A stretch of 64,000 nucleotides of DNA, taken from Malacoraja senta (Eukaryota). The stretch is from contig CM075992.1 in the NCBI GenBank assembly GCA_038087875.1, forward strand, positions 12,588,001 through 12,652,000. The letters run 5' to 3'. A model generated the notes under the pieces. The model had not been told where the DNA came from, ran no database searches, and saw only the letters and a program-made list of their open reading frames with translations. The translations under genes and the position numbers were made by a program. Shown here one piece after another: positions 5,853-58,499 of the stretch. Position 1 is the stretch's first letter; every line of letters starts with the position of its first letter.

Positions 5853-6058
5853 TGTAGATTGATGATGCATGTGAATCAATCACACGTAGCTGGCATCACT
5901 AACTCCACCCCATTATAACATTTATACTAACGCCCATTCCCAGCACCGTTAGTTGAAGCAGCCAGGATGAACTGACAACACCTCGCTCTGTAATGCTGCC
6001 AAGTTAAAGTGCTGAATAAAGATGTGTGTAAATCTTATATGCTTTGAAGTGATTTACA
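5853..6058 (+). repeat. Gypsy 5' LTR
   Basis: TGTAGATTG...ATTTACA with AATAAA. Direct repeat of 10320-10525. Confidence 0.95.
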
Positions 6059-6073
6059 TGGCGTCAGATGTGG
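6059..6073 (+). promoter_or_regulatory. Primer-binding site (tRNA-Leu-like)
   Basis: TGGCGTCAGATGTGG immediately after the LTR, resembling the Leu(CAA) PBS TGGTGTCAGAAGTGG. Confidence 0.7.
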
Positions 6074-6138
6074 TCCTACCCAGTCCTCTTGTATAACGGT
6101 TTTTATTTTATCTTTTGTGAGTTTTGCTTTACTTTACG

Positions 6139-7734
6139 ATGGCTACTTGTTGTCGGAAGCCTGAGCCTCTTGTCTTTGATGCCGATATCAGCGAACGCTG
6201 GGCCACGTTTGAAATTGATTACCAGCACTACATGAAGATTGTACACCGAAATGTACCAGATGCTGTTAAGGCCTCTCTCTTGCTCAACCTTGCGGGACCT
6301 GGTGCCCTTCGTCGATCCAGAACATTCCGTTATGCTCCGGCTATCCGTGATGCCCAGGACCAGGTAATTACACCGGCGGAGTCTACCACTGACCCTAATG
6401 TTTTGCTGCGTAAACTGGCTCAGATCTGTGAACTGCCCTCAAATCACATTTTGGACAGGGCAAGGTTTTTCTCTCGTCGTCAACTTCCCGGGGAACGAGT
6501 GGACGCATGTATTGCTTCTTTAATGTATCTAGCACAACGTTGTCGATTTCAGGAAATGCCAGCGGATCAGTTGACTGATCAGTTAACGAGGGATATTTTA
6601 GTGAATGGTATCACCGATCAAAAGCTCAGATCAGAGCTCTTGAGACGGCCAGAGTTATCGCTAGATGACGCGGTGCATGCATGTAGAACGGCTGAACTTG
6701 TTGATCCTATAGACATTCCGCATGAAAGCAATACCATCAATCTGACGGGCCTCACTAGGCAGCGGACATACACAGATAACAGCCGATCTAAGATCCAAGC
6801 TAGCCAGGCAGCTCTCAGCGATCCTTCACAGAAATGTCCTAACTGCGGCTATCTACACAGCAGGCAATCCACCCGCCCCGCCCTCGGGAAGGCTTGTAAT
6901 TACTGCAAAAAGCTAAATCACTTTGCCTCAGCCTGTCGGGCTGCTATCAGGGCCCGAGGAAAGAATGCACCCAGTCCCAAGTCTAATCTCATTTTTTTGC
7001 AACGAGACAGCAACATACTGACTCCCCATTTGCAGCTCGAAGCCGCCCCCGAATGTATTTCATTTGACTCGCAAGACGATCCTACTGTTTACATGTTACA
7101 GCATGCTGCTGCCAAGAACTCTGATCCTACAGTGACGATATCTGTAAACAATGTTGCTTTTGGCGCGAAACTGGATACGGGGGCGAGAGTCAATACAATG
7201 TCAATCAACCTTTTTAACAGGATCAGGGCTAACGAGCCACTTGTCAAGGACGCGTCCACTTTGCATGCTTTTGGTGGGGAGGTGCTATTTCCTCTGGGCA
7301 AAGCCAACTTGAAATGTGTACTGAAGAAAACAACTAGGGAATTGACGTTCCATGTGCTGGACTTTAATTCGGTTACCCTGCTTGGCAATCGTGCCTGTCA
7401 GGAACTAGGGCTGATCTCCTTTGATAAAACTGTCCACAAACTGCAAGTTTCCTTTGATCCACTGAATGACTTCCCTGGTCTTTTCGACAACAACCTCGGC
7501 AGGTTGCCTGTGTCCAACAAGATTACAATCGACCCCGACGTGACACCTGTTGTCCGAAACCCACACAGATTGTCATTTGCCATGACTGACAGGGTTCACT
7601 CTATGCTGAAGGACATGGTCTCCAAAGGCGTAATTGAAGCCGTCAGTGACCCCACCGACTGGGTCTCAACCATGATTGCCACAGTCAAGAAGGGAAAGGA
7701 TGAAATCCGCCTTGCATTAATCCAAAAGACCTGA
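6139..7734 (+). CDS. Gypsy Gag, aspartic protease and start of RT
   Basis: Zn knuckle CNYCKKLNHFASAC and protease LDTGA. Frame lost near 7712, where EIRL(C)INPKDLN needs one extra T. Confidence 0.9.
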   Translation: MATCCRKPEPLVFDADISERWATFEIDYQHYMKIVHRNVPDAVKASLLLNLAGPGALRRSRTFRYAPAIRDAQDQVITPAESTTDPNVLLRKLAQICELPSNHILDRARFFSRRQLPGERVDACIASLMYLAQRCRFQEMPADQLTDQLTRDILVNGITDQKLRSELLRRPELSLDDAVHACRTAELVDPIDIPHESNTINLTGLTRQRTYTDNSRSKIQASQAALSDPSQKCPNCGYLHSRQSTRPALGKACNYCKKLNHFASACRAAIRARGKNAPSPKSNLIFLQRDSNILTPHLQLEAAPECISFDSQDDPTVYMLQHAAAKNSDPTVTISVNNVAFGAKLDTGARVNTMSINLFNRIRANEPLVKDASTLHAFGGEVLFPLGKANLKCVLKKTTRELTFHVLDFNSVTLLGNRACQELGLISFDKTVHKLQVSFDPLNDFPGLFDNNLGRLPVSNKITIDPDVTPVVRNPHRLSFAMTDRVHSMLKDMVSKGVIEAVSDPTDWVSTMIATVKKGKDEIRLALIQKT

Positions 7735-10292
7735 ACACTGCCATTAAGCGCCCGCACCATCCCATGAAGACAGTAGAGGATGTTGCAGCAAAGATCGGAA
7801 CGGCCACCCTATTTTCCGTCCTGGATGCAAAGAATTCATTCTGGCAGATACCGCTGGAAAAGAGGTCATCAAACCTCACCACATTTGCCACCCCATTCGG
7901 CAGATTTAAGTTTTTGAGAATGCCATTCGGGATCAACTCTGCCAGCGAAGTCTTCCAAAGAACTATGGAACAATTGTTCAAGGGTCTGCCTTGTGCCATT
8001 ATTGTCGATGATATTCTTGTCTATGGCAGAGACGCGGCGGAACATGACCACAATCTCAGGCTCATTTTGGAGCGTGCTGTCCAGATCAACCTCAAACTCA
8101 ATCCTGACAAGTGCAAGTTCAGGGTTCCAGAGGTCTCCTATGTCGGCCACATCTTCACCCCTGACGGCCTCAAACCGGATCCGAAGAAGACTTCTGTCAT
8201 CACAGAAATGCCTGCACCCACTGACGTGAAAGGCCTGCAACGTTTCCTGGGCATGGTAAACTATCTCGGAAAGTTCATACCTAACCTCAGCGAATTAAGC
8301 TCCACATTGCGGCAGCTGACAAAAAAGGACACTGCATGGTCATGGTTCCAGCAACATCAGGATACCTTCGATGTTCTGAAATCAAAACTGACTAGTGCAC
8401 CGACCCTAACTTTTTTCGACCTGAAACGTCCGGTGGTGATCACCTGCGATGCCTCGAAATTCGGGCTTGGCGCAGCCTGCCTGCAACCGTCTGATGATGG
8501 TACCCTACTACCCGTCGCGTATGCCTCTCGCACCATGACCGACACGGAGCAGCACTACGCGCAAATCGAAAAGGAACTGCTGGCGGTCGTCTTTGCCTGC
8601 TCCAAATTCCACGACTTCGTCTTTGGCAACACGTTCATGGTTGAGACGGATCACCAGCCACTGGTGACAATCTTGAACAAGCCTATCCACGCCGCCCCAG
8701 CTCGTTTGCAGCGCATGATGATGCAGCTACAGCGGTACGACTTCTCTATTACCTACAAAAAGGGCAAGGACATGCATGTTGCTGACACACTCTCTCGTGC
8801 CCCTCGAACATCTTGCGAACAACACCCTCACGAACAGGGGGATTTCACTGTTCTCGGTGTTGGTCTAATCTCCAGCAAGCAACTGCGCACCCTGGCCGCG
8901 CACACTGCCAAGGATGCTACGCTTCAAGCCCTCTCGTCCATCATCAAGACAGGCTGGCCAGGCAAACAATCCAACACACCCACTGAGGTGCAGCCGTACT
9001 TCTTGGTCCGTGATGAACTGGTGGTTCAGGATGGTGTGGTCGTCAAGGGCCACAAGGTAGTTGTACCTGCATCGCTACAAGACGAGTACTTCAAAGAGGT
9101 ACACGGCGGTCACCCAGGAGCCGACTCCACACTGGCACGCGCCCGGGATCTGTTCTACTGGCCTGGAATGGCCACTTACATCCGAGACCGTGTAGCCTCC
9201 TGCCCCACTTGCAACAATCTTGCACCTCATCAGCAGCGGCAGCCCCTTCTGCAACAACCTTCACCAGCCCTGTCATGGTTGTCGATGGCTGCGGACATTT
9301 TCGAATGGCGCGGTAAGCACTACCTCGTTCTGGTCGACTCGTACTCCAACTGGTTTGAACTTGACCAACTTACCTCCCTCACGTCGGTGATAGTCATCAG
9401 GAAGCTGAAAAGACATTTCTCAGACCATGGTATTCCTGTTATTCTGAGAACCGACAATGGTCCACAGTTCACCAGCCACTCGTTCAAGCTTTTCGCTGAC
9501 CGATGGAACTTTCAGCACATCACAAGCAGTCCCGAGTATCCACAGAGTAATGGACTCGCTGAACGCGCTGTCAGGAGCGCCAAGCACTTGCTGGAGGGAG
9601 CGCGCATTTCAAACTCTGACGTCTATCTCGATCTGCTGAACCTCAGAAACATTCCGAGAGACGGAGTCTTGGGGTCACCAGCACAGCAGCTGCTATCGAG
9701 GGTGACGAGGTCTCCGGTCCCCATCGCACAACAGCAGCTGGTTCCTCGGGTGTTGAAGCCTGCCACTATCCAGCAACGTCTCCAAGAGAAGCACGAGACC
9801 CAGAAACGGTCATATGACAGTTCCAGCAGACCACTCCAGCCTCTACTGCCGGGCCAGGTCGTCCGTCTGCGAACTCCAACTGGTCATTCTCGTCTGGGCG
9901 TTGTTGTGCGGCCGACTGATGAGCCGCGATCGTACCTTGTGGACTGTGAGGGAGCGGTTTACCGGAGAAGTCGTCAACACCTGCTTGCTGTGAAGGAGCC
10001 CCGACCGCCGCCTGCCGATCCCTATGCTCCACCGCTCCAGTTCCAGCCACCTTCCGCGATGTCTCCCGCCCGTTCCCGCGTGCCTGCCACTCCCCCACGT
10101 CTATCGGTCTCCAATAACCACGGGGTCTCACCCACCGCATGTTTCCCCCCTCGGTCACCACAATCCTCTCCCGTGCGGTTTTCACCTTCAACCTCCCCGC
10201 CTCATCCTTCAGTTGAGGGAGGGGATGGTTGGGTCCGCACGCATTCGGGCCGTGTTAGTAGACCACCAGACAGGTATGGCGAGTATGTTTAA
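7713..10292 (+). CDS. Gypsy Pol (RT, RNase H, integrase), continuing after an apparent 1-nt deletion
   Basis: LDAKNSFWQI, MPFG, IVDD, CDAS, ETDH, HHCC and the DDE core (VDSYS, TDNG, NGLAER). Confidence 0.93.
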   Translation, partial: CINPKDLNTAIKRPHHPMKTVEDVAAKIGTATLFSVLDAKNSFWQIPLEKRSSNLTTFATPFGRFKFLRMPFGINSASEVFQRTMEQLFKGLPCAIIVDDILVYGRDAAEHDHNLRLILERAVQINLKLNPDKCKFRVPEVSYVGHIFTPDGLKPDPKKTSVITEMPAPTDVKGLQRFLGMVNYLGKFIPNLSELSSTLRQLTKKDTAWSWFQQHQDTFDVLKSKLTSAPTLTFFDLKRPVVITCDASKFGLGAACLQPSDDGTLLPVAYASRTMTDTEQHYAQIEKELLAVVFACSKFHDFVFGNTFMVETDHQPLVTILNKPIHAAPARLQRMMMQLQRYDFSITYKKGKDMHVADTLSRAPRTSCEQHPHEQGDFTVLGVGLISSKQLRTLAAHTAKDATLQALSSIIKTGWPGKQSNTPTEVQPYFLVRDELVVQDGVVVKGHKVVVPASLQDEYFKEVHGGHPGADSTLARARDLFYWPGMATYIRDRVASCPTCNNLAPHQQRQPLLQQPSPALSWLSMAADIFEWRGKHYLVLVDSYSNWFELDQLTSLTSVIVIRKLKRHFSDHGIPVILRTDNGPQFTSHSFKLFADRWNFQHITSSPEYPQSNGLAERAVRSAKHLLEGARISNSDVYLDLLNLRNIPRDGVLGSPAQQLLSRVTRSPVPIAQQQLVPRVLKPATIQQRLQEKHETQKRSYDSSSRPLQPLLPGQVVRLRTPTGHSRLGVVVRPTDEPRSYLVDCEGAVYRRSRQHLLAVKEPRPPPADPYAPPLQFQPPSAMSPARSRVPATPPRLSVSNNHGVSPTACFPPRSPQSSPVRFSPSTSPPHPSVEGGDGWVRTHSGRVSRPPDRYGEYV

Positions 10293-10319
10293 TATGCTTT
10301 TAATCTTTAGGGGAAAGGA

Positions 10320-10525
10320 TGTAGATTGATGATGCATGTGAATCAATCACACTTAGTTGGCATCACTAACTCCGCCCCATTATAACTATTATACTAACGC
10401 CCATTCCCAGCACCGTTAGTTGAAGCAGCCAGGATGAACTGACAACACCTAAATCTGTAATGCTGCTAAGTTAATGTGTTGAATAAAGATGTGTGTAAAT
10501 CATATACGCTTTGAAGTGATCTACA
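10320..10525 (+). repeat. Gypsy 3' LTR, preceded by PPT AGGGGAAAGGA
   Basis: Direct repeat of 5853-6058 with about 14 substitutions by eye. Confidence 0.95.
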
Positions 10526-11885
10526 GTTATTGCGGACCGAGCGGAGGTGTTCGGCGAAACGATCGCCAAGCCCCCGCTTGGTCTCACCGATGTAGAGCAA
10601 CTGACATCTAGAGCAGCGGATGCAATAGATGAGGTTGGAGGAGATGCAGGTGAACCTCTGTCGCACCTGGAACGACTGCTTGGGTCCTTGAATGGAGTCG
10701 AGGGGGGAGGTGAAGGGACAAGTGTTGCATCTCTTGCGTTGCAAGTGAAAGTGCCCGGGGAGGGGGTGGTATGGGAGGGAAGGGAAGAATTGACAAGGGA
10801 GTTATGGAGGGAGCGGTCTTTGCAGAAGGGAGACATGGGGGGAGATGGGAAGATGTGGCGAGTGGTGGGGTCACGTTGGAGGTGGCGAAACTGACGGAGG
10901 ATTACTTGTTGTATGTGACGGCTGGTGGGGTGAAAGGTGAGGACTAGGGCGGACTCTGCCCTTGTTGAGAGTGGGGGGATGTGGAGAGAGAGCAGTGTTG
11001 CGGGATGAAGAGACCCTGGTGCGAGCCTCATCAATGGTGGAGGAGGGGAACCCCCGTTCCCTGAAGAATGAGGACATTTCAGATGCCCTGGTGTGGAACG
11101 CCTCATCCTGGGAGCAGATGTGGCGTAGACGGAGGAATTGGGAGTAGGGGCTGGAGTCCTTACAGGAAGCAGGGTAGGAAGAAGTATAGTCCAGATAGCC
11201 ATGGGAGTCAGTAGGGTTATAGTGGATGTCGGTCAGAAGTCTATCACCTGCGATGGAGATAGTGAGGTCAAGGAATGGTAGGGAAGTGTCGGAAATGGTC
11301 CAGGTGTATTTGAGTGCCGGATGGAAGTTAGTGGTGAAGTGGATGAAGTCAGTCAGTTGTGTGTGGGTGCAGGAGGTGGCACCAAAACAGTCGTCAATGT
11401 AGCGGAGGTAGAGGTCGGGGATGGGGCCCTTGTGTGTGCCCATAGCTACGCCTTGTATTTGGAGGAAATGGGAGGAGTCAAACGAGAAGTTATTGAGGGT
11501 ATGGACCAGCTCCGCTAGGCGGAGGAGTGTGTCAGTGGCCGGGTATAGGTTGCTTCTCTGGTCAAGGAAGAACCGGAGGGCTTTGAGACCATCCTGGTGG
11601 GGGATGGAGGTGTAGAGTGACTGGACGTCCATGGTGAAGTTGAGGGGGTGAGGGCCTAGAGAATGGAATGCGCGGAGACGACGGAGAGTGTCTGAGGTGT
11701 CTTGAACATAGGTATGGAGGGATTTAACAAGGGGGATTGGATGGAGTCAAGGTAGGTGGAAATGAGTTCAGTGGGGCACGAACAGGCAGAGACAATGGGT
11801 CTACCGGGACAGTCAGGTTTGTGGATTTTGGGGAGAAGGTAAAATCGGGCCGTGCAGGGCTGGGGAACGATGAGGTTGGAGGCTC
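10526..11885 (-). mobile_element. Penelope-like element (RT plus GIY-YIG), truncated and internally deleted
   Basis: MDVQSLYTSIP, GVAMGT, RYIDD, and NLIYCIRCSRC...YIGETKR. Confidence 0.93.
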
Positions 11886-11892
11886 GGTCGTA

Positions 11893-13570
11893 GTAGTTAC
11901 CTATCGTCTCCCTTGCTCCTTTTCTAAAGTAGCATGGATTCTATTTGGTGCCCTCCAAAGTGGCTACTCCATTATGTTGAATTCCAGAGACAGCATCAAT
12001 GCACTCACTATTTTCATTATGACTTCCGTTGGTCTGTTTCCGTGCTGGATGACGTTCTGTAAGGTTTGTCGTTTATATTCATCCACGACTTCCTCTTCAC
12101 CAGATTGCAATCAGTCCAGATTGCAACAACACTTGCTCCTCGATGGCCATCAACACAGGGCACCTCAGGGCAGTGAGCTCAGTCCCCTGCTCTACTCACT
12201 TATTTCTACTGTGAAATTCTTATATGGCAGCCAGAACAGCTGTGTAAACACAGAACTCATAGGTAATACAACAAACAAAAGTTCAATAAATTACAAAAAA
12301 ACAATATTAGTGCAAAACAAAAACTGAAATTACTTGGTGCAATCAAGACTGTTCATAGTGTGTAGTTTAGTTGGAGTTTGTAGTGTTCAAATGCCTGGAG
12401 ATTGTTGGGAAGAAGCTGTTCCTGAACAGCCTGAGGTCATAGTTTCAGACTCCCAAACCTTTTCCCAATGGGGGAAGTGAAATGAGAGCGTGGCCAGGTG
12501 GTGTGGGTTCTTGATGATACTGGCTGCCTCTTTGAGGCAACGCCTCCTATAGATCACTTCAATGGTGGGGAGGTCAGTACCCATGATGGACCAGGCTGTG
12601 TTCACCATTATTGTGTTCTCCTTCTTTCCTAGGTGTTCAAATTGCCGAACCAATCCATAACGCAACCAATCAACTTCATGAAAGCTAGGGATCCATGAAC
12701 CTGTCTTCATTAATGAGGCAACAGAACAAAGAGTCAACAGCAGACACAAAATGCTGGAGCAACTCAGCAGGACAGGCAGCATCTCTGGAGAGAAGGGATA
12801 GGTGACATTTCGGGTCGAGACCGTTCTTCAGACTGAAGGGTCTTGACCCGAAACTTCACCCATTCCTTCTCACCAGAGATGCTGCCTGTCCCACTGAGTT
12901 ACTCCAGCATTTTGTGTCTACCTTCGATTTAAACCAGCATCTGCAGTTCTTTCCTACACAAAGAGTCAACAGCTTCAGGTTCCTGGACATGTGTATCTGT
13001 GAAGGCCTGTCCTGGGCCCAGTGGATTGATGCATCACAAAGAAAACTCATCATTGTCTTTATTTCCTCAGTAGATTGAAGAGATTCCCTATGTTGAATAC
13101 TTTTTTGAGCACTCTAACATGGAGTTATAGAGTCATACAAAATGGAAACAGGGCCTTTGGCCCAATAGCATGTTCCAACCAACTTGCCTCATCTGCACGA
13201 GTCCCATGAGCCAGTGATAATAGAATATAGACAATAGACAATAGGTGCAGGAGTAGGCCATTCAGCCCTTTGAGTCAACACCACCATTCAGTGTGATCAT
13301 GGCTGATCATCCCCAATCAGTACCCCGTTCCTGCCTTCTCCCCATATCCCCATGACTCTGCTATCTTCAAGAGCCCTATTTAGCTCTCTCTTGAAAGTAT
13401 CCAGAGAACTGTCCTCCACCGCCCTCTGCGGCAGAGAATTCCACATTCACAACTCTCTGTGTGAAAAAGTGTTTCCTTATCTCCGTTCTAAATGTCTTAC
13501 CCCTTATTCTTAAGCTGTGGCTTCTGGTTCTGGACCCCCAACATCGGGAACATGTTTCCTGCCTCTTGCA
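11893..13570 (-). repeat. Inverted segmental duplication, arm A (reverse complement of about 28082-29774)
   Basis: Colinear through unique sequence and several different TEs. ORFs 12387-12782 and 12856-13053 mirror 28957-29280 and 28622-28819. Confidence 0.95.
12742..12959. mobile_element. Palindromic Penelope-pLTR-derived element with TSD
   Basis: Internal hairpin centred near 12830. AAAGAGTCAACAGC duplicated at 12728-12741 and 12960-12973. Confidence 0.8.
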
Positions 13571-13731
13571 TGTAGTGTATTTGGGTACTTGGAACTGACT
13601 CAAAAGAACACTCAGATACAGGAGTAAACTGACAAGCTTCTTTATTCTAGGACGCCACCTTGAGTCTCCCCTAGCGCATGCGTCCCCTTGCACAATACAT
13701 AACATAAGCTAATTATATTACATACATCACA
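13571..13731 (-). repeat. 3' LTR of small non-autonomous LTR element
   Basis: Minus strand TGTGATG...ACTACA with AATAAA, preceded by PPT AAAGGGGGAGCAG (13732-13744). Inverted copy at 15016-15171. Confidence 0.9.
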
Positions 13732-13991
13732 CTGCTCCCCCTTTAACTTGGAGGCAGGTAACACCATTTACATTATATACATTACATTGCTCCCCCTTTA
13801 GCTTGGAGGCGAATAACACCATTCTATTACATTAAATATAATTGTTTAACACACTGTTGCAAAATTATATTATTACAGTCATCTTACATTACATCCTCAT
13901 AACTGTACAATCGTATCTAAACTTAGCACTTATAATGGTTCATTCCACTCATCTTCTTTAAACCAAATACATTACCCCTTGCTTTATGTGT

Positions 13992-14499
13992 TATCCTTTT
14001 CTGTTCCCTTCTGTATAAATTGCACACTCTTTCTAATTCACTCTAGATCTACCTGTATCTCTGCCTCTTCCCTTTTTAAATATCCTAAACTAATTTGCAG
14101 ATTTCTTCCTGTTCTTGATATTCTGCTAAAGTTAACATTTCCTCTGTTTCTGTTCCTTATTTGTAGGTGGGATCTCACACATGACTGCAGGTTTTCGTTT
14201 TTCAGCAGCTTCCTCTGTCGCTCAATTTCCGGGCGCTGCATATTTATCGGCTCTTGTTGTATAATAACATTCTGCAATGCATAACCATTTGACCATTGCT
14301 AAGTGAAGGAAGCTCCATGCTGGACTATAGTGAAGTGTCCTAATCGCAATCGGTCCTGCATACTTTTGTCTCGACCGCCAAGCCTCTCTTCTTTAGACTT
14401 TTCTATTAACAGTTTTTTGCTCATCGTCACACATTTATTTAACCGTTCTTTGTATCGTTTAAGCCTTTTCTGTTATTCATCTATTTGTCTTCATAAATC
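13992..14499 (-). pseudogene. TLK2: Processed fragment of Tousled-like kinase 2 (coiled-coil region) inside the LTR element
   Basis: Manual translation: [74 protein letters not shown]...EIERQRKLL...LTLAEYQEQEEICKL..GYLKREEAEIQVDLE*LERV. This matches TLK2 as I recall it, with stops and frameshifts. Confidence 0.9.
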
Positions 14500-14835
14500 A
14501 CCTTTCTGGTTATTCATCAAGAAATAGGATCTATATTGTCTTTGCAATACAACACTGGCTTTGATTTGTGCTCTGTATATATTTCTTACTACATAAGCAG
14601 GGTAGTGAGACTGCACTACAACTGCTATATAAATCAGTTTCAGGAAGTCTTTCCTATATCGTTTAAGCCTTTTGTATCGTTTAAGCCTTTTCTGTTGCAC
14701 ATCTATTTGTCTCCTTAGGTCTTTCCTATACCAACTCATACAGAGTACTGACTTCACTTTTACAGTAGCCCTCTTTAGCTTAACCCACTGCCTAACCACC
14801 ATACTCTTGTAGGCAGCCTGAATGGTAATGGTTGC
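14500..14835 (-). pseudogene. IQ-motif repeat fragments, ASPM-like, interleaved with a short second TLK piece (about 14668-14722)
   Basis: ATITIQAAYKSMVVR, AVVVQSHYPAY and KASVVLQRQYRSY are IQ-type repeats. [17 protein letters not shown] lies between them. Confidence 0.65.
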
Positions 14836-15015
14836 ATATCTGGGCTTGTATACTCTGGAATTTAGAAGGATGAGAAGGTTTCTTAATGAAACATATAAGA
14901 TTATTCAGGGATTGGATATGTTAGAGGTAGGAAACATGTTCCCGATGTTCGGGGAGTCCAGAACCAGAAGCCACAGTTTAAGAATAAGGGGTAAGACATT
15001 TAGAACGGAGATAAG

Positions 15016-15171
15016 TGTGATGTATGTAATATAATTAGCATATGTCTTGTGCAAGGGGACGCATGCGCTAGGGGAGACTCAAGGTGGCGTCCTAGAATAA
15101 AGAAGCTTGTCAGTTTACTCCTGTATCTGAGTGTTCTTTTGAGTCAGTTCCAAGTACCCAAATACACTACA
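15016..15171 (+). repeat. 5' LTR of the same small LTR element, inverted relative to the 3' LTR
   Basis: Reverse complement of 13571-13731, followed by a PBS. Confidence 0.9.
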
Positions 15172-15173
15172 AT

Positions 15174-15191
15174 TGGCGATGAGGATGGGAT
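15174..15191 (+). promoter_or_regulatory. Primer-binding site, tRNA-Ser(GCT)-like
   Basis: TGGCGATGAGGATGGGAT, 2 nt after the LTR, is one mismatch from the complement of the tRNA-Ser 3' end ATCCCATCCTCGTCGCCA. Confidence 0.8.
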
Positions 15192-15701
15192 AGAGATGGG
15201 ACTCATCCGCAGGACTATTTTGCAACACGCAGGATTGTTTAACAGTTTAAACAGTAGATACGGAGTTGTGTCGCAGTTGTTTGTGAGCTGGACATGAGAG
15301 GCCTGCAGATCCCTCTATGCTGGGGACTGTAATTCAAAAACATCAGCTGTACAAGTTGGCGAGTTTTGTAAGGCTATCTCTATGTTGTGTCTATGTGGCA
15401 AGATGTCGTCCTTCGGATTGTTACACATTTTAGACTGAGTTTTTTTTGTCGAATTCCTCAAGCTGAATAATCTTTGTACAGCTAAGTTTTAGGTGAATTG
15501 TTACACCAGAACACACAACAAGGATAACGAGGCAACGAGGATAAAAGAACAGAAATGAACAAAGAAGGGCTGTCAAAAAAAAAAAAAGTTAAAAAGAAGA
15601 GGTTGTGTTTGGAAACAAAGTGGGACGGCACCAAGCCAAAGAAAAGAAAGGTCAGAACAGGAAGCAAGGAAAACAAGTGGGGCAGTAAGTAAGTGTCACC
15701 G

Positions 15702-16920
15702 AAGCCTCCACATCCTTCCTGCAATAGGGCGACTAGAAATGCACACAATATTCCAAATGAGGCCTCACCAAAGTCCTATGAAGCTGTACCATGATTTCCT
15801 GACTCTTATACCCAATGCCCTGACCTATGAGGAGGTGACAAACGTGGTCGATAAGGGTAAGGTGGTGGATGTTGTCTACATGGATTTTAGTAAGGTGAAC
15901 TTGCACTTGGGCATTGTCTTCAGTTTAGTAAAGATTTCATTAAGCTGACGCATCATAGCAAAGTGGGTTTATGAGGATGTTGTTGGGACCCAAGTTCTAG
16001 AGCTACAGAGAGAGCTGGGCAGGCTAGAACCTTAATCCTTGGAGCACAGGAGGCTGACGGGTGAACTTACAGAGATGTATAAGTCATGGGGAGTAGATAG
16101 AGTGAATCTTTAGTTGAGTTTAGAGAAACGGCATGGAAACAGGCCCTTCAGCTCACCGAGTCCACATCGACAATCGATCATCCCTACGCTAGTCCTATGT
16201 TATCCTACACACTAGGTGGAATTTACAGAAGCCAATCACGATCGTCTTTGGAATATGGTTGGAAACCGGAGCACCCACGCGGTCACATGGAGAACGTACA
16301 AACTCCACAGAGACAGCACTCGTTGTCAGGATTGAACCTGGGTTTCCGGCGCTGTGAGGCAACAGCTCTAACGCTGCTCCACTGTGCTGCCCCTGCACAG
16401 TGTTTTTCCCATCAGGCATTTAACAACTAGAGAGCTTAGGTTTAAGGAGGGATAGGAAAGAGTTAATAGGAAACTGAGGGACAATGCTTTCACACAGAGG
16501 GTGCTGGGTATATGGAACAAACTGCCAGAGGAAGTGGCGAGGCAGCATTTATGAAGCTCAATGTCCTTTCATAAACTGTGCTGGGTTGTAGCAGGCACCT
16601 GCTGCTGACCACAGTTCAGTACAATATGGGCGAGGACAACTTTCTCTCACTGGCCTTCTCTATCTCTACAGCTGAGTTGGTTTGTGCGCACGTGTGGTTT
16701 TCACCAGTTCTACTCTGACAGCTCTATATCTATGGTCTATTTTGAGAGACGGAGAAAGAGATGTTATCATCCTGGGTGGACAAAACCATACACTAAATAA
16801 AACTTGCTACTTACTGTATAATCTTACAGATCGCTTCGAGAATGCAGAAAAAATGAAATAACAAGATGTACTGAACCAGATCCTTTTATGATTCAGCATG
16901 TTGCAGAATGACAACACATA
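15702..16920 (-). repeat. Inverted segmental duplication, arm C (reverse complement of about 24865-26007)
   Basis: Colinear across CR1 pieces, a SINE and unique sequence. ORF 15739-15948 mirrors 25761-25970. Confidence 0.95.
16190..16395 (-). mobile_element. tRNA-derived SINE (V-SINE/HE1-like)
   Basis: A box (GTGGAGCAGCGTTAG) and B box (GGTTCAATCC), then TGTGGAGTTTGTACGTTCTCC. Mirror copy at 25305-25515. Confidence 0.75.
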
Positions 16921-40110: not shown

Positions 40111-43100
40111 ATAATAATAATAATAATAATAGATTTAATTTAAGGGCGCCTATACAAAAGTCTCAAGGACACCTTACAAAATTTAACAAAGAAACATATA
40201 ATCAGAGTAAAATAAGTTATAAAGACATCACCAATACACAAATTAAAGACAGAAATTCGATCCAAAAAAGACAACAAAAAAATTCAGAAACACAATGTGA
40301 AGGGAGAGCAGCGGCAGCCAAACCGCGCCAGCGTGCACTCTCCCTTCCGACCGCCATCTTGGACATAGACTAACATAGACACTACACACTACACACAAAA
40401 TCATCCCCCCACAATGATTACCACTGTGGGGGAAGGCACAATGTCCAGTCCCCAACCTCAGTTCTCCCCAAAGTCAGGCCTATTGAGGCCTCCACAGTTG
40501 CCTTTACGGAGGCCCGATGTTCCTGGCCGTTCTTGCTGGGTGTTGTTGCCCCGGCGTCGGGAGAGTCCTCGCAGCGGCTGGGACGGCTGGAACGGCCGAT
40601 TTCCTACCGGAGTCCGTGGCACCTAAACCCGACAAGGCCGCGCCGATTTGGAGCTCCGAGGCTCCCGATGTTAGCGTCGGCACCGCCGCCCGCGGCTGGC
40701 TGCTCCGCATTTGACCAGGTAGAATGGACATATTTATTTTCGGTAATGAAAAAATTTCAATTGGGAGAGAAGTACTGTACATGGGTTAAATTGTTATACT
40801 CTAATCCAACAGCTAGAATATTAACAAATCAAATGTTATCAGCCAAATTTAATCTTTCTAGAGGTTGTAGACAAGGATGTTCACTATCCCCACTATTATT
40901 TGCTCTTGCGATTGAACCATTAGCAGAAAGCGTTAGAAACCATCCAGGAATACATGGATACAACACTAGAGATACAAGGAATAAAATTTCCTTATATGCA
41001 GATGATGTATTAATATATATTACAAAGTTAGAAACTAGTATTCCAAATCTATTAAATCTAATAAGACAATTTGGTCAGTTCTCAGGATATAGGATTAATT
41101 GGAATAAAAGTGAAATTATGCCAATAACAAAATTCAACTTAAATACAATACAACAATCCCCTTTTAAAATAGTTAAAGATAAACTTAAATATTTAGGAAT
41201 CTATGTAACTAAGACATATACCTCTTTATTTAAACAAAATATTCCATCCTTACTTAATAAATTACACAAACATATTCAGTACTGGAAAACACTTCCTATT
41301 TCAATGCTTGGTAGAATTAATGCTATAAAAATGATTTTCTTACCACAACTACTATATTTATTTCAATTAATTCCGATATATATTCCAAAAAACGTTTTCA
41401 AAAAAGTCGACTCCATTGTTACAAGCTTTATTTGGGATTATAAGAATCATAGAATAAGTAAAAAACATTTATGTAAGTCAAAGAGTAACGAAGGTTTGGC
41501 CTTGCCAAATTTCTTATATTATTTTTGGGCAGTCCATATTAAAAACATGAATTTCTGGCTGGAAGAAATGGACCAACAACCAGAATGGTTAAGGATGGAA
41601 AAGGAAGACTGTTTACCTTTTGAAATAGGTTCGATTATATTTGCTACCACAAAATTGCATAAAAAAACCTATAAGGAAAACCCTATAATACATAGTGGAA
41701 TACGAATTTGGAAACAATTAAAAAAGGCTTTAACACTGAATAATATACCACTATGTCTTCCCATTGTAAATAATCCTCTATTCAAGCCATCCATATTGGA
41801 TAGAGGTTTTATACAATGGAAAAATCATGGAATTAAAAGGATTGGACATCTATATAGGGAAGGCATCTTTCTGTCATTTCAAGAGTTACAACAGAATCAT
41901 GGACTACACTCAAATAACTTTTTCAGATATTTACAAATTAGAGATTATGTTAAATCCTATTCACAAATTTATAGGACTAGGGAACCAGAAATTCTTGATG
42001 AATGTTTGAATAAGCATCCTAACACTGAAAAATTAATAGCTTATATTTATAACATTCTCCTCAATAATGAGGAACCACCGATGGAACTATATAGACATAA
42101 ATGGGAAAATGAGTTAGGTTATCCTATTACGAAAGATATTTGGGACGAAAGTTTCCAACATATACATCAATGTTCGTTAAATGCCAGACATGCTTTAATA
42201 CAATTTAAAGTCTTACACAGATTACATTATTCCAAAATAAAACTAAATAGAATTTTCCCACATATTTCTCCTATATGTAATAAATGCCTGCACCTAGAGG
42301 CCAATTTAACACATACCTTTGCAAATTGCATAAAAATTAAAAATTACTGGACTGATATTTTTCAAATAATCTCTGAAGTTGTTAATACCAAATTGGCTCC
42401 AGACTCAAAATTAATAATACTTGGGATATCAGAACAAAGTTTAACACTCACAACAAGCCAAAGAAACTTCCTTGACTACAGTATAATAACAGGGAAAAAA
42501 ATAATATTAAAATTCTGGAAAGGCCCTACAACCCCCACAATTAAAATGTGGATTGTGGAAATGTCGGAGACCCTACATCTAGAAAGAATTAGACTTGTCT
42601 TAATGGACAAGCAAGAACTTTTTGTTAAAATTTGGCTCCATTCATTGCCTATTTGAAGGGATAGAGTGGCCCAGCGCGAAAGCCCGACTGAAGCTTGAAC
42701 TCAGGATTAGATGTAATTATATTTCATAACCTACGAACTTATCTCCTATGACGTATTATAAGTTATTCATTCCACCTCTTTTTCTTTTTTGATATTGTAA
42801 TTCTTCTTTCTCTCTCTTCTTTCTTCTTTCTCTCTATCTTTCTTTTTCTATCTATATTAAAAAAAAACACTAGAAGCAGAATTAACTGACAATTGACAAA
42901 TGTAATAATGTATCAGTGATTGATGTATATGAAAAGTTTTTTCTTCTATTATAATATGTTACTCTACATTGTAATATGTTTGCTTCTAATAAAAATGTAT
43001 ATCGTAAAAAAAAAAATAATAATTCAGAAACACAATGTGAAGGGAGAGCAGCGGCAGCCAAACCGCGCCAGCGTCCACTCTCCCTTCCGACAGCCATCTT

Positions 43101-48759: not shown

Positions 48760-50520
48760 CTGCAAATCAACAAACCAATACGATTATGTAAAGGATGTGA
48801 TTCATTAGTCACAGGGTGTACAAACAGTTCAATCTGCTTTGGAATAACCATAAGGGGGTTTTTGATCATTTTTAACACCAGTGGGTACCATACCTGTGTA
48901 GGCCAATCTGGTACTACCAAAATCCCTGAGGCTTGAATCTTGTTTAATTTTCTGTATGCATTTGTGGATTAAACAAAATGGTGGAAAAGCATACAGAAAC
49001 ATACCACCCCAATGTAGCGAGAAAGCATCCACCACTACTGCTCCAGGATCAGGTTCCCATGACACATACTTAGTCAACTGGTGGTTCAATCTTGATGCAA
49101 CCAGATCACTTTCTGGCATTCCAAATTGTGTGATAATTTGTGTGAATATTTTCCGATTTAACATCCATTCTGTATTCTCATTAAATTTACGTGATCTTTT
49201 GTCTGCAATTGTATTAATTTTTACCTGGTAAATATATTGCTGACAGCCAAATTTTTCTGGCAATACACCAGGTCCAAATTTCATTTGCCAATTTATCACA
49301 TGATTCTGATTTTATACCACCCATGTGATTTATGTATGCTACAGCTGTAGTATTGTCAACCTGTACCTGAACATGCACATTTCCCATATCAGTGCAATAA
49401 GCTCTAAGGCCGTAAAATGCGCCTAATAGCTCTAGGTAATTGATTCCCAGATTTTCCAGCAAAGGTACTTCATTCACATTCCACCTACCTCCACAGCTGG
49501 AAATCATGTTAGTAGCGCCCCAACTCAGCACACTTACATCAGTCTGTAGAGTGACGGAAGGTGTTTCTTCCAGAACTTTTCTGGAAGCATTAGAAACATT
49601 GTTAATCCACCATTCTATTTCTGTAATGGATTGAATTGTTAATTTCATGGGCCTATCAAAATGCCCTCTATTCATTTTTAACGCTTGTACCTTAGCTCTC
49701 TGTAAACATTGATAATGCAATGGTCCAAACGTGACCGCTGGAAACCTTGCAATTAATTTGCCTAGCAAACTTGCCACTTCTCTAATTGAAGGTGTGTCCT
49801 CGTTAATGGGTTTTATGCAACCTTCAATTAACTGCAGCTTTTTATCTTTTGGCAAAGTGATTACCATGTGTTCGGAGTTAATTGTGAACCCTAGGTAATC
49901 AATCTTTTTGCTTGGTAACAATTTAGATTTTTGTAGGTGAATAATGAAACCTAATTTCTCAAAATGTATTTGACTCTGGACACTGACAATTTTGCAGCAG
50001 CCAAAGTGTCCCCTACAATGAGGATATCATCTAAATAAGCCATTAACACATGGCCCTCAGCTCTTAACAGAGCTAAAATTTGGTTTGAGCAATTTAGTGA
50101 ATAATCTTGGTGCTGAAATCAGACCAAGCAGAATAATATGCATTTTGCAGATCTATGCTTGCCTTATAGCAATTCTTTGTGACTAGCTAAATGGCATTAG
50201 TAAATGTTTCCATTTTGAAATGTTTCTATTGTACATAAAGGTTAAGATTTGTCAGATCGGAAATGATTCTATATCCACCATCCCTTTTCTAGGAGAATAT
50301 TCCTAGGAGAATATTTGACACAAACTGATGGTGTTGTTCTCCTGACATTTATATCATCCTTTTCTGCATAAAGTTTTTCAATTCTTCCTTTGAGAAAATC
50401 CGTGACCAGTTTGAATTATGCTGAATTGGAGGATCCAAACATGGAGAGAACTCAATTTTGAATCCTACAATGCTACATAGAATAAATGAATCATTTGTTA
50501 TTTATTGCCATTCTTTTAGG
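48760..50520 (-). pseudogene. DIRS RT/RNase H/adenine-methylase-like ORF (fragmented)
   Basis: ORFs 49214-49921 and 48829-49299, plus YLDD. Confidence 0.88.
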
Positions 50521-53626: not shown

Positions 53627-54930
53627 GTACACAAAAATGCTGGAGAAACTCAGCGGGTGCAGCAGCATCTATGGAGCGAAGGAAATAGGTAACGTTTCGG
53701 GCCGAAACCCTTCTTCAGACTGATAGGGGGTGCGGAGAAGAAAGGAAAAAAGGAAAAATGCGGAGGAGGAGCCCGAGGGCTGGGGGAGGGGAGGAGACAA
53801 CCAGATGGCTGATGAAGGGGAGGGGACAGCAAGGGCTAGCAGAATTGGGAGAATTCAATGTTCAAGCCCCCAGGATGTGGACTGCCCAAGCGGAATCTGA
53901 GGTGCATTTCATCCAATTTACGGTGTTGCTCGCTGTGGCCATGGAGGAGACCCAGGACAGAGAGGTCAGATACGGAATGGGAGGGGGAGTTGAAGTGCTG
54001 TGCCACCGGGAGGTCAGGTTGGTTATTGCGGACCGACCGGAGGTGTTCGGCGAAACGATCGCCAAGCCTCCGCTTGGTCTCACCGATGTAGATCAGCTGG
54101 CATCTAGAGCAGCGGATGCAATAGATGAGGTTGGCGGAGATGCAGGTGAACCTCTGTCGCACCTGGAACGACTGCTTGGGTCCTTGAATGGAGTAGCGGG
54201 GGGAGGTGCAGGGACAAGTGTTGCATCTCTTGCGGTTGCACGGGAAAGTACCAGGGGAGGGGGTGGTATGGGAGGGAAGGGAAGAATTGACAAGGGAGTT
54301 ACGGAGGGAGCGGTCTTAGCGGAAGGCAGACATGGGGGAGATGGGAAGATGTGGCGAGTGGTGGGGTCACGTTGGAGGTGGCGAAACTGACGGAGGATCA
54401 CTTGTTGTATGTGACGGCTGGTGGGGTGAAAGGTGAGGACAAGGGGGACTCTGCCCTTGTTGTGAGTGGGGGGATGCGGAGAGAGAGCAGTGTTGCGGGG
54501 TATGGCAGAGACCCTGGTGCGAGCCTCATCTATGGTGGAGGAGGGGAACCCCCGTTCCCTGAAGAATGAGGACATTTCAGATGCCCTGGTGTGGAACGCC
54601 TCATCCTGGGAGCAGATGCGGCGTAGACGGAGTAATTGGGAGTGGGGGATGGAGTCCTTACAGGAAGCAGGGTGGGAAGAAGTGTAGTCCAGATAGCCAT
54701 GGGAGTCGGTAGGTTTGTAGTGGATGTCGGTAAGGAGTCTATCACCTGTGATGGAGATAGTGAGGTCAAGGAATGGTAGGGAAGTGTCGGAAATGGTCCA
54801 GGTGTATTTGAGTGCCGGATGGAAGTTAGTGGTGAAGTGGATGAAGTCAGTCAGTTGTGTGTGGGTGCAGGATGTGGCACCAAAACAATCATCGATGTAG
54901 CGGAGGTAGAGGTCGGGGATGGGGCCCTGG
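53627..54930 (-). mobile_element. Penelope-like element (RT C-terminus, GIY-YIG, pLTR end with hammerhead core)
   Basis: RYIDD, NLIYCIRCSRC...YIGETKRRL...VAQHFN...GLNIEF. Close to 10526-11430. Confidence 0.93.
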
Positions 54931-57331
54931 TACGCATTGGTGGGGGTTGGCAGGACTGATGTGCTGGTGTCCTGCTCGTGAGAACATTAGTTCTCTGCTG
55001 CCTCAGCCAAAGCCAGCAGGTGCCCTGGCCCCGACAAGCTGCCACGTGGTTAGTTTCTGATCTCGATGTCTTGTCTGCTTCCTAACAGGGCCTGAGAAGC
55101 GTTCATGTGACGGGAATGTGATTGAAAGCACGAGAGCCCTGCAGAGCTGGCTACAGCTGCTTCTAAAGCGAGACACAGAGCACAAGAGCAACAGTGCCCT
55201 GACTATCTTTGTTTGGGACTGTAACTCGCCTCTCCACTGGGACTGCCCCATTGCTGCTGCCACCCTCTCCCCATTCTTACCTCCATCGCTCTGCTTCAAT
55301 TTGCTACAAACTTCGGAAGAAAGAGGCAAGAAGTTGCAGCTGAGAGTTGAGCTGCTTCAGCTCTCTGCTTCTATTGAGCATGTACATAGCAGGAGTTCAT
55401 AGCTTCTACATTGTTGAACAGACTGTCCAATAATAAGCATGGTAGCATCTAGCCTGGATTCTGGGGAACGGAAGAGTTGCCTTTCACTTCAAGCACCTCC
55501 CTGGGCAGATGGGATGATGTCCGTCTGGCTTTAAGGTTGCTTGATATGGTGATCCTCTAATTGTTGGCTATTGGACAGTGGTTGGCAAGGTGACAAACCA
55601 GGATTCAGCCATCGGAAGGTGAGCACGGGCAGCACAGATCAATGAGTGCTCGTGAGTTTGGAAGGAGTTTGCTTGGGGTCCAACATGGGCTGGGTGGATG
55701 TCTAGCAGGTTTAGAGTTGAGTTAGTGTTCAATGCATCCAATGACTGCCCTGCCCTTGGCTAGATGTGGCCCTGGAGCTCAGCTAGCGTTCGTAAGCTGG
55801 CAGAGGGTGCAAGTCCCAGACTGGCTTTTGCCTGCTGTTGGGTTGGTGACACAATATGATGAGAAGAGTGCATGTGAGCTGCAAAGCCATTCCCCATCGC
55901 CGCCCATCATTATTTGGAGCTTTTCAAGAGCCAACAAAAAGCAGGTTGTAAATGCCACTGACAACCACATCTCCTGATTGGTTCGGGACATGTGAGACAC
56001 AGATGAGCTTCTCTCTCTAGGCAGTGTCGAGGGTGAAAGGCCAAAGGGTAAGAAAGCTTGAACAGGATACACCTGTCACCAGGTGAGATGTCAGAGTCTG
56101 GCCCAGGCCGCTGCTCAGCCCCGAGTCAGGCCCAGTGCAAGTTCCTCAGCAGATAATCACCACGAGGCAGCCTTCACATGGGACCCCATCTCCTCCCGGT
56201 TCACTCCAGCCCCTCGGCACCAGCTAATTGCCGTCACCATTGAGTGATACCCACCACCATCTCACCACCACATTATCTGTGTGGAGTGGTTCATGGATGG
56301 ACCTCCCATTGTCACCCTCTCAAAGACAGTGTGGGATGGAACACTCAACCCTGCCTTTGCCTGAGGCTGATGAATGAAAATGCAGCCAGTGCTGAGCACG
56401 GCTGTGGTTCCCAGTGCCCCGGGTTTGCCCTGTAACTGCCGCAGGTGAGACAAAGGAGGTTTCACCGGCTCATACGGAGGAAGCAGGAAGGGCAAGCTGG
56501 TTACACCTTGTTACTGTACTGATACATGGAAATGCAATATTTTTTTTAAATGCCAGGCCTTTATTGAATAAAAGTATCATCCTGATCTGTGGGTCTTGTT
56601 AATATGTTCACATTCCTCATATTAATAATTATTTCTCATAACTTGTAAGAAGGTGTGGTCTAGACATGAAATATTCAAAGCGTTACTGAGCAAGGGCGGT
56701 TTAGACCAAATGTGCCTTTGAAATCCTTGGTTACGGGAAGGCAGGAGAATGGGGATGAACGAGAAAAATTGATCAGTCATGATTGAATGACAGAGTAGAG
56801 TAGATGGGCTGAATGGCCTAATTCCTCTCCAATGTCTTATGCCCTGGGGAACAAGAAGTCATTCCTAAAACCCAGGACTGAGATTCCTTCCTGCACTTGG
56901 CCACATGCATCAATTGGTCAGATCTTGCTAGAACATTTGTGGTTGGTAAACACTGTCTACACCACCGTCTACAGAATGCTGACTGTCTACACCAGTGTAC
57001 ACCTGTCTACAGTTAGTGCCCACTGCCTTGCTAGTGAGGGAGTGCAGCGTAGGTTCACAAGGTTAATTCCCGGGATGGCGGGACTGTCATATGCTGAGAG
57101 AATGAAGCGGCTGGGCTTGTCTATATTACTAAAAGTCTGATCGTGACCGCTTTTGACTAACTGTGCTACGATTTCTTAGAGAACGCCGCCACCTACGGCC
57201 GTCATTTTTGGCCACCTCGCTCAGAGCCCCCCTCCGCCTTCCGGGACCGAATTTTTCCCATCAATGAAAAATCTGAGAGATATTTATGTTTTTTTTTTAA
57301 ATCACCGTTCTCTCTGCTGCCCCCGCTGGCG

Positions 57332-57481: not shown

Positions 57482-58086
57482 GTAGCTGCTGCCCAATTGT
57501 TTGCCTCGCCTTTTAAAAAAGTTTGTGTTCACAAAATGAATTTTGGTTGTTAGGTGGCTGCTGCCCAATTGTTTGCTTCGCCTTTTTAAAAGGTTTATGT
57601 TCACAAAATGAATTTTGATTGTCAGGTGCCTGCTGCCCTATTGTTTGCCTCGCCTTTTAAAAAATGTTTGTGTTCACAAAATGAAATTTGGTTGTCAGGT
57701 GGCTGATGCCCAATTGTTTGCCTCGCTTTAAAAAAAGTTTGTGTTCACAAAATGAATTTTGGTTGTCAGGTGGCTGCTGCCCAATTGTTTGCCTTGCCTT
57801 TTACAAAAGTTTGTGTTCACAAAATGAATTTTGGTTGTCAGGTGGCTGCTGCCCAATTGTTTGCTTCGCCTTTTTAAAAAGTTTATGTTCACAAAATGAA
57901 TTTTGATTGTCAGGTGCCTGCTGCCCTATTGTTTGCCTCGCCTTTTAAAAAATGTTTGTGTTCACAAAATGAAATTTGGTTGTCAGGTGGCTGCTGCCCA
58001 ATTGTTTGCCTTGCCTTTTACAAAAGTTTGTGTTCACAAAATGAATTTTGGTTGTCAGGTGGCTGCTGCCCAACTGTTTGCCTCGG
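57482..58086 (+). repeat. About 72-bp tandem array, 8 full units plus a partial
   Basis: Unit GTGGCTGCTGCCCAATTGTTTGCCTCGCCTTTTAAAAAAGTTTGTGTTCACAAAATGAATTTTGGTTGTCAG. Confidence 0.95.
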
Positions 58087-58499
58087 CTTGGTTTTTCAAA
58101 TCATTGCAACAGTTTTCGGACGGATAAAGCGTGAATAAACATTTTATTAGATCAGGACTGTGTTTAATTGCAAAATTGGCGCTCATTCCGTGACTTCTGC
58201 TTAGTGGCAAGATGGCGCCGATTACATCATTCCCGGTTAGCATCAAGATGGTGCTGACTGCGTCATTTCCAGTTCATGGCAAGATGGCACTGACTGCAGA
58301 AGGCATAGTGAAGACGTCGTTGAATAATTCAAGAGAGCTTACTGCTCTGTCTATGGTGAGTGTGTTTGTTGGACATTATTTAAAGCACGTTTTTGCTTCA
58401 GCAGCAGCCGCCTCTACAGGAGACTTTAAACGTTTGAATCATTCGGTTTACACACTGTATGTTCACCACGTTCTGAAGTTACTTGGCATTTTAGTATTG

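Follow-up and report, generated by a model that had tools for sequence, protein, structure and literature searches.

A multi-copy family of non-autonomous Ty3/gypsy elements in a skate that appears to carry pieces of ASPM and of spliced TLK2 mRNA in place of pol

Acutely transforming retroviruses are helper-dependent elements in which pol has given way to a piece of host mRNA that continues the frame of a shortened gag (gag-onc). Among the non-autonomous LTR elements of plants, TRIMs measure under about 1 kb and have a non-coding interior, and TR-GAG elements keep gag. In animals, LTR-mediated retrocopies have been described, in the parts of Tan et al. 2016 (PMC5131818) drawn upon here, as intronless mRNA pieces, sometimes from two genes, lying between discontinuous halves of an LTR element; they are in the sense strand, often in frame and co-transcribed with the element. 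The same parts of that source (PMC5131818) present the maize element Bs1 as carrying exon pieces from several host genes and as having transposed again with its switch points unchanged; it is found there in 1-5 copies in Zea. Finally, the gene-capturing telomeric retrotransposons of Drosophila are, in the excerpt of PMC13534243 used here, non-LTR elements that hold 140-235 bp taken from piRNA-pathway genes, for which piRNA evidence is given.

The window considered here is a stretch of 64,000 nucleotides from Malacoraja senta (assembly GCA_038087875.1, contig CM075992.1, positions 12,588,001 to 12,652,000 of the forward strand), and positions below are those of the window unless a contig or locus is named. 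An initial annotation, made from the letters alone, had placed at 13571-15695 a non-autonomous mini-LTR element carrying TLK2 and ASPM-like fragments. The origin and structure now proposed for this cargo element are held with high confidence: a Ty3/gypsy element of a skate would have given rise to a non-autonomous derivative in which pol was replaced by ASPM and spliced TLK2 mRNA. Capture would have happened when reverse transcriptase, in germ-line particles that had also packaged host mRNAs, switched template onto these, and the derivative, keeping LTRs, primer binding site (PBS) and polypurine tract (PPT), would have been mobilised in trans by the Gag-Pol of its relatives. The cargo would then act as translatable filler in the place of pol, an open frame shielding the RNA, for instance, from nonsense-mediated decay or, alternatively, coupling translation to packaging. 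Taken whole, from template-switch capture through amplification in trans to the cargo as filler, this reading is the probable one.

The two TG...CA LTRs of about 160 bp announced by the initial annotation are present as an inverted pair, the 3' LTR (161 bp) at 13571-13731 on the minus strand and the 5' LTR, flipped with respect to the 3' half, at 15016-15171 on the plus strand; they differ by 2 mismatches in 156 aligned bases and one gap of 5-6 bases. A 55-nt tandem duplication (13713-13822, minus strand) doubles the PPT, which had also been noticed, one copy adjoining the LTR at 13732-13746 and the second lying at about 13787-13801. The 3' UTR (13732-13990, minus strand) is inherited from the gag-pol gypsy progenitor, with matches of 73-75% to the gag-pol relative L071, to whose end the 3' LTR together with this UTR is 75% identical. 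On the same strand follow the TLK2 piece (13987-14501) and, in frame with it, the 3' remnant of the ASPM IQ-repeat piece (14502-14838), which contains a 72-nt in-frame insert where the TLK2 start occurs a second time (14671-14721). A LINE fragment of about 175 bp (14839-15015), presumably CR1-like, sits between the element halves and is inverted along with the 5' half. The PBS (15174-15191, plus strand) has 18 nt with 1 mismatch, and its complement is a tRNA 3' end with 8 exact matches in the genome; ARAGORN assigned four of five of these loci to tRNA-Ser(GCT), in keeping with the tRNA-Ser type first suggested, and one to Thr(GGT). The 5' leader (15192-15704, plus strand), cut by the rearrangement, consists of an insert of about 360 nt typical of the young subfamily and, from about 15530, of older leader. 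This insert (15192-15530) is found in young copies only, where it is placed with a full 18-nt PBS before the older leader, and was possibly taken from another helper family. Elsewhere the window contains a 72-bp tandem array of 8.4 copies (57485-58089), as well as reverse-transcriptase-like frames at 10871-11746, 40374-42656, 49214-50026 and 54093-54986, which we take to belong to Penelope-, DIRS- and LINE-type elements.

The TLK2 piece comprises about 172 codons of the window, close to the 170 codons of coiled-coil initially estimated, and matches PDB 5O0Y with an E value of 3.8e-43; it corresponds to residues ~195-376 of the TLK2 protein P0002, in the coiled-coil region and without the kinase. 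The host TLK2 gene lies at ~14.38-14.41 Mb of G000:C10, and five of its exons, all AG/GT-bounded, are contiguous in the element, the four missing introns (3299, 1703, 1082 and 1293 bp) being all GT-AG. Since these four host introns are absent, the piece is of mRNA origin, as had been supposed from the exon structure of TLK2. The window copy is 90.2% identical to the host exons over 509 aligned bases; in 25 young copies the figure is 89-92%, and the old copy L063 reaches 95.4%. The piece begins and ends within exons, and the captured part, ~180 codons in all, is without the start of the coiled-coil region; it appears to begin inside the first coiled-coil stretch, a boundary placed by deduction. 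The window piece bears the indels of -1, -28 and -1 common to the young subfamily, and two stops private to this copy. A second TLK locus, probably TLK1, is found on the separate contig G000:C6180, cut by the contig start, with 84-88% identity to the TLK2 kinase exons.

The IQ-motif repeats reported at about 14502-14838 are recovered by Pfam (IQ, E 0.0041 in the window and E 3.7e-21 in a fuller copy), and their ASPM-like identity has been borne out: among 1.84 billion representatives, the best match of the IQ part is stingray ASPM (residues 2591-2964, 56% over 398 aa, E 1e-130). In full copies the ASPM piece extends over ~355 codons. A homologue search with the window's short IQ piece returned 0/133 candidates, and a PDB search only weak myosin IQ matches. 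The host ASPM locus was found in the assembly neither among the candidates scored (52 of 534 and 68 of 375) nor by an ASH family search (0/5) or a junction-pattern search (0 matches); copies of the element may have masked it, or the assembly may lack it, and these searches are no evidence of its absence. Because this locus was not found, intron loss is demonstrated for TLK2 only. The chimera is also present in another skate assembly, where protein P0243 (XP_055489032.1), listed at NCBI as 'ASPM homolog isoform X1' of Leucoraja erinacea, is a gag-repeat-ASPM fusion ~80% identical to the young copies over 289 aa. Such a listing of an element copy illustrates the annotation risk in skates; moreover, 150 or more copies at 89-95% identity can confound the mapping of TLK2 and ASPM reads.

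The statement that neither gag nor pol is present holds for the window copy and fails for the family, in whose full copies the frame opens with a Gag-like segment and continues through ASPM and TLK2, all in the gag frame. In the ESM Atlas the top clusters for this segment are Gag, Ty3 capsid and zf-CCHC (0.91-0.92), and Pfam gives a weak zf-CCHC (E 0.035) and DUF7041 (E 0.0035); a homologue search with the N-terminal part of gag returned 0/60 candidates. In L063 the CCHC knuckle is present and runs directly into ASPM, and in young copies the knuckle is gone and a 21-nt tandem repeat stands in its place. A knuckle-based search of the genome led to four relatives without cargo, three of them with long pol frames. 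One of these relatives, L068, was scanned in full and contains RVT_1, RT_RNaseH, Integrase_H2C2 and rve in gypsy order, together with a protease motif recognised by eye only, without a Pfam match; in L067 and L071 the LTR lies within ~300 nt of the integrase end, which leaves no room for env.

Comparison of the old copy with these relatives indicates where the exchange took place. L063 is 93-97% identical to L069 and L070 up to the knuckle, just before the cargo, and lacks 333 nt (111 internal codons) of their gag; with L071, homology resumes at 75% from the TLK2 end and runs through the 3' UTR, PPT and LTR. Because L063 matches L069/L070 up to the cargo and L071 from the cargo's end, the cargo replaces pol exactly, beginning directly behind the zinc knuckle of Gag and reaching to the 3' UTR. 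At the 3' junction of the cargo in L063 there is no poly(A), and the alignments overlap by ~13 nt, UTR homology starting at L063:3951 and the TLK2 match ending at 3963, as judged against a relative only 75% alike. The cargo element, because pol is absent, is best seen as a non-autonomous derivative of a Ty3/gypsy LTR retrotransposon, whose gag and PBS we take to resemble those of the Mag clade. Thus, of the LTR-mediated capture of spliced host mRNA initially put forward, the part concerning TLK2 is retained (introns absent, cargo in the place of pol, no poly(A)) and the mini-LTR without gag is given up. No intact helper was found among the best 150 of 565 knuckle candidates, the longest open frame reaching 556 aa, and all four gag-pol relatives fetched are degenerate. 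The window itself holds, at 5853-10525, a near-intact and unrelated gypsy-type element, with 206-bp LTRs 93% alike, a 5-bp target duplication and two long frames, of 537 and 862 aa, that overlap. It was considered as a helper and rejected on its 31-38% amino-acid identity to the L068 pol and the lack of a leader match.

The same cargo occurs throughout the genome, as the initial annotation had anticipated. At least 150 contiguous matches to the TLK2 fragment exist, all of the best 150 of 315 candidates found having been confirmed on scoring; for the gag piece the figure is 150/150 (best 150 of 528), and for the 3' half 40/40 scored loci match, one of them in the window and the other 39 at 89-95%, the leader behaving likewise. 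These counts are lower bounds (at least 150), and some loci are duplicated: L007, L025, L027, L028 and L029, 5 of the 29 fetched loci outside the window, share their flanks with another locus and were dropped before the substitution and indel counts and the tree, in which the window copy was included. Among the young copies, five that have both ends measure 4358-7845 bp, and L063 measures 3250 bp; with a range of 3.3-7.8 kb, and a cargo in frame with a gag fragment, the family is not a 'mini-LTR' one. Target duplications of 5 bp are exact in 9/10 cases, that is in eight of nine young pairs, the ninth having one mismatch, and in L063. LTR pairs diverge by 0 to 10% (41/1412 bases in nine young copies and 16/159 in L063). 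The TLK match is significant, it spans five exons, and many insertions with their own target duplications carry the same cargo; none of the outcomes named in the initial annotation as fatal to its reading has thus materialised.

In 4/9 full copies (L033, L036, L037 and L057) the 5' LTR is 55 nt longer and starts at the more upstream of the two PPT copies, and the target duplications of these four are exact and match the longer LTR. Priming of the plus strand at either PPT would fit this arrangement, and tandem arrays sharing an LTR are ruled out by it. A tree of the TLK2 piece, with rough supports, places 25 copies in a star-like young clade with short end branches, L064 and L066 as a pair, and L063 and L065 near the host gene. 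The non-autonomous derivative made at least three subfamilies, and the cargo is kept in all those examined. Three other runs, one each from organisms A, B and C, also yield contigs, and these span 24-30 of a copy's 30 bins. The third subfamily, represented by L064 (G000:C18:9973800-9979000) and L066 (G000:C2735:64800-69900), is clustered on C18 and many short contigs and has LINE sequence inserted in the ASPM part; many of its matches share open frames of 303 or 415 aa, and it is possibly a segmental amplification of one copy. At another locus, L014, a full PBS stands behind the 3' LTR and gives way to unrelated sequence, which by eye we take to be DIRS-type.

Expression was followed in one polyA run (X12, organism G), of which 7.3 million records, 6% of the run, were used. 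On the copy L004 and its flanks 443 reads could be placed, mostly 90-95% alike and therefore from a related species or subfamily. Read depth is 59-68 on the 3' UTR, falls from 64 to 15 along the TLK2 part, and is 6-9 on gag and ~1 on ASPM. Nearly all reads run in one direction, which, for a library of the common stranded type, would be the element sense. Moreover, 41 reads join the TLK2 part to the element 3' UTR, 26 continue into the LTR and 13 run from LTR to PBS. Since host TLK2 mRNA cannot join the TLK2 part to the element 3' UTR, this shows that element-derived transcripts exist in the polyA run. A single transcript across gag, ASPM and TLK2 was not found in this read set, the ASPM depth being ~1.

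The proposed role of the cargo as translatable filler depends on how frame and protein have evolved. At 1182 sites with outgroups, the stem of the young subfamily carries 35 nonsynonymous (N) and 12 synonymous (S) substitutions, against 361:122 for post-insertion singletons (p=1), and in gag alone 15:4 against 39:11. The amino-acid sequence evolves neutrally and the protein is unconstrained, no purifying selection on it being found in the first of these comparisons. Stops account for 0/47 stem substitutions and 33/516 singletons, a non-significant difference (p=0.10). The frame, in turn, is kept by 8/9 lineage-level rearrangements as against 11/37 private indels (Fisher p=0.002), in a small post hoc count where two events are compound and L064 and L066 may be segmental duplicates; a harsher count gives 5/6 (p=0.02). 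The events that keep it are the 333-nt gag deletion, the gag-ASPM and ASPM-TLK2 joins, the exchange of knuckle for repeat, with a spacer that is a multiple of three in 15/20 young copies, the 72-nt insert, three separate indels summing to -30 in 24/25 young copies, a 63-nt deletion and a net change of +3. A whole open frame was found in none of 15 young copies checked, whose longest stop-free stretches are 169-486 aa. Selection for one long translatable frame, and not for its protein sequence, is thus given neither more nor less credence than its opposite, because the count is post hoc, the events are partly compound and recombination is possibly frame-biased.

The same data bear on the view that an element of the same origin is a pure passenger, spread on its cis signals alone, its single frame being the product of chance and of recombination bias. 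The equality of the stem and singleton ratios is what such a passenger should display, and the loss of the knuckle in the young subfamily and the single frame-breaking lineage event, a +1 near the end of the frame in L064/L066, also agree with it. Even with no selection at work, in-frame joins may be favoured when the template switch is made between coding or periodic sequences, and among the young LTR retrocopies of flies 14/17 are in frame, for which youth is the reason suggested in the relevant part of Tan et al. (PMC5131818). However, the surplus of frame-keeping lineage events over private indels, the repeat spacer in multiples of three and the three mutually compensating indels speak against a pure passenger, which is possible but less likely than not.

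A different benefit would follow if the cargo acted against host defence, either because a kinase-less TLK2 coiled-coil ties up TLK dimers or because element piRNAs cut TLK2 and ASPM mRNA. Retention of the cargo in every subfamily examined is in its favour, and in the TLK2 part the fixed changes found only in young copies are 4 N to 6 S; nevertheless, the whole ORF is without amino-acid constraint, and 14 N to 7 S (3+7+4 N, 1+0+6 S) were fixed in the same part after the oldest split. To our knowledge ASPM has no role in silencing, which also counts against it. As far as the consulted parts of these sources go, human cells depleted of TLK transcribe satellites and some HERVs more strongly (PMC7408502), and CC1 is required for TLK2 dimerisation (PMC6023931); the cargo apparently begins inside the first coiled-coil stretch, but the beginning of the region is missing from it. 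Similarly, the telomeric elements of flies hold piRNA-pathway gene fragments ~90% identical to the host genes that they target, according to the excerpt of PMC13534243, and identities here are 89-95%, yet few reads lie on the opposite strand. Moreover, the host shows no escape: at most one synonymous difference in 299 nt is common to all copies, and 188 aa of host TLK2 are equal to those of Amblyraja radiata and Leucoraja erinacea. Counter-defence is for these reasons unlikely, and counter-silencing through TLK2 is possible but unsupported. It is improbable, in particular, that a helper-dependent 'gag-cargo' transducer spread owing to its TLK2 coiled-coil, as protein or piRNA source, lowering TLK-dependent heterochromatin silencing in the germ line; if true, this would be a transposon-encoded anti-silencing factor built from host mRNA.

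Whatever the function of the cargo, the window locus itself is no longer to be regarded as an intact LTR element: its LTRs are inverted, its middle is lost, and the target-site duplication that was looked for is absent, there being a 93-bp duplication of the flank instead of a 5-bp one. The LINE sequence adjoining the 5' LTR repeats, over 93 bp, what flanks the 3' LTR at 13476-13566, with 3 mismatches in 91. The stretch 13571-15695 appears to be a dead, rearranged relic of a larger family and not a working 2.1-kb unit, produced by a later inversion of the 5' half with loss of ~2-2.5 kb of the middle, as compared with copies of 4.4-4.7 kb, at one inversion breakpoint. An assembly error might be blamed for this layout, which is absent from all 29 other loci fetched and is known from the assembly alone. 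However, undoing a single inversion (~14839-15704) restores both the element order and a collinear LINE flank, and short shared letters are found at both breakpoints, so that an error of this kind is doubtful.

Finally, it is very improbable that an ASPM/TLK2 retrocopy made by LINEs, or the product of a DNA-level rearrangement, landed in an LTR element already present and then travelled with it, for although the genome is LINE-rich and the ASPM piece, as we presume from the human gene, may fit one large exon, so that DNA capture is possible for ASPM, both TLK2 ends lie inside exons, no poly(A) follows TLK2, the progenitor 3' UTR homology overlaps the end of the TLK2 match, and pol is replaced by the cargo, not interrupted.

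With template-switch capture and amplification in trans as the preferred reading, the interest of the family resides in the whole series being available in one genome, from the gag-pol progenitor through the old capture copy to the derived subfamilies, along with the host donor gene. Animal LTR-mediated capture has so far been known mostly from single young loci, and two questions become testable through the skate family, namely whether captured cargo alters the success of an element, and whether selection keeps a frame open in the RNAs of non-autonomous LTR elements whatever protein it encodes. In this family the reading frame seems to outlast the protein sequence. A description of it was sought in the literature (skate, LTR retrotransposon and ASPM) and none was found; the search was of the openly accessible literature outside Repbase and Dfam, and a repeat library may already contain the family without comment.

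When compared with known systems, the skate element is built like a gag-onc transducing retrovirus, from which it differs in its gypsy progenitor, its lack of a catalytic domain and the absence of amino-acid constraint. With TRIM and TR-GAG it shares short LTRs, PBS and PPT, and the absence of pol, as well as gag in the case of TR-GAG; unlike TRIM it reaches 3250-7845 bp with a long ORF, and unlike both its gag lacks 111 internal codons and its frame is mostly host-derived. With the Drosophila telomeric elements, as portrayed in the excerpt of PMC13534243, it has in common that host fragments are kept at ~90% identity in a successful element, whereas its cargo of ~1.6 kb comes from cell-cycle genes, forms a coding frame and is known from DNA and polyA reads. 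Like maize Bs1, in the account of PMC5131818 cited above, it is an LTR element with host exonic pieces, the plant host, the 1-5 copies and the cargo being different. It also works like the retrocopies of Tan et al. 2016, with which, on the features given in those parts of the paper, it shares the loss of parental introns (4/4 for TLK2), the discontinuous element halves flanking the cargo and the absence of poly(A); those, however, are young loci in single or few copies (PMC5131818), whereas the skate chimera is a family of at least 150 matches in several subfamilies, a copy number far above that of the captured-gene elements found described. The mechanism proposed is the known LTR-mediated retroposition; what is new is its scale, its persistence across subfamilies and species, and the exact replacement of pol.
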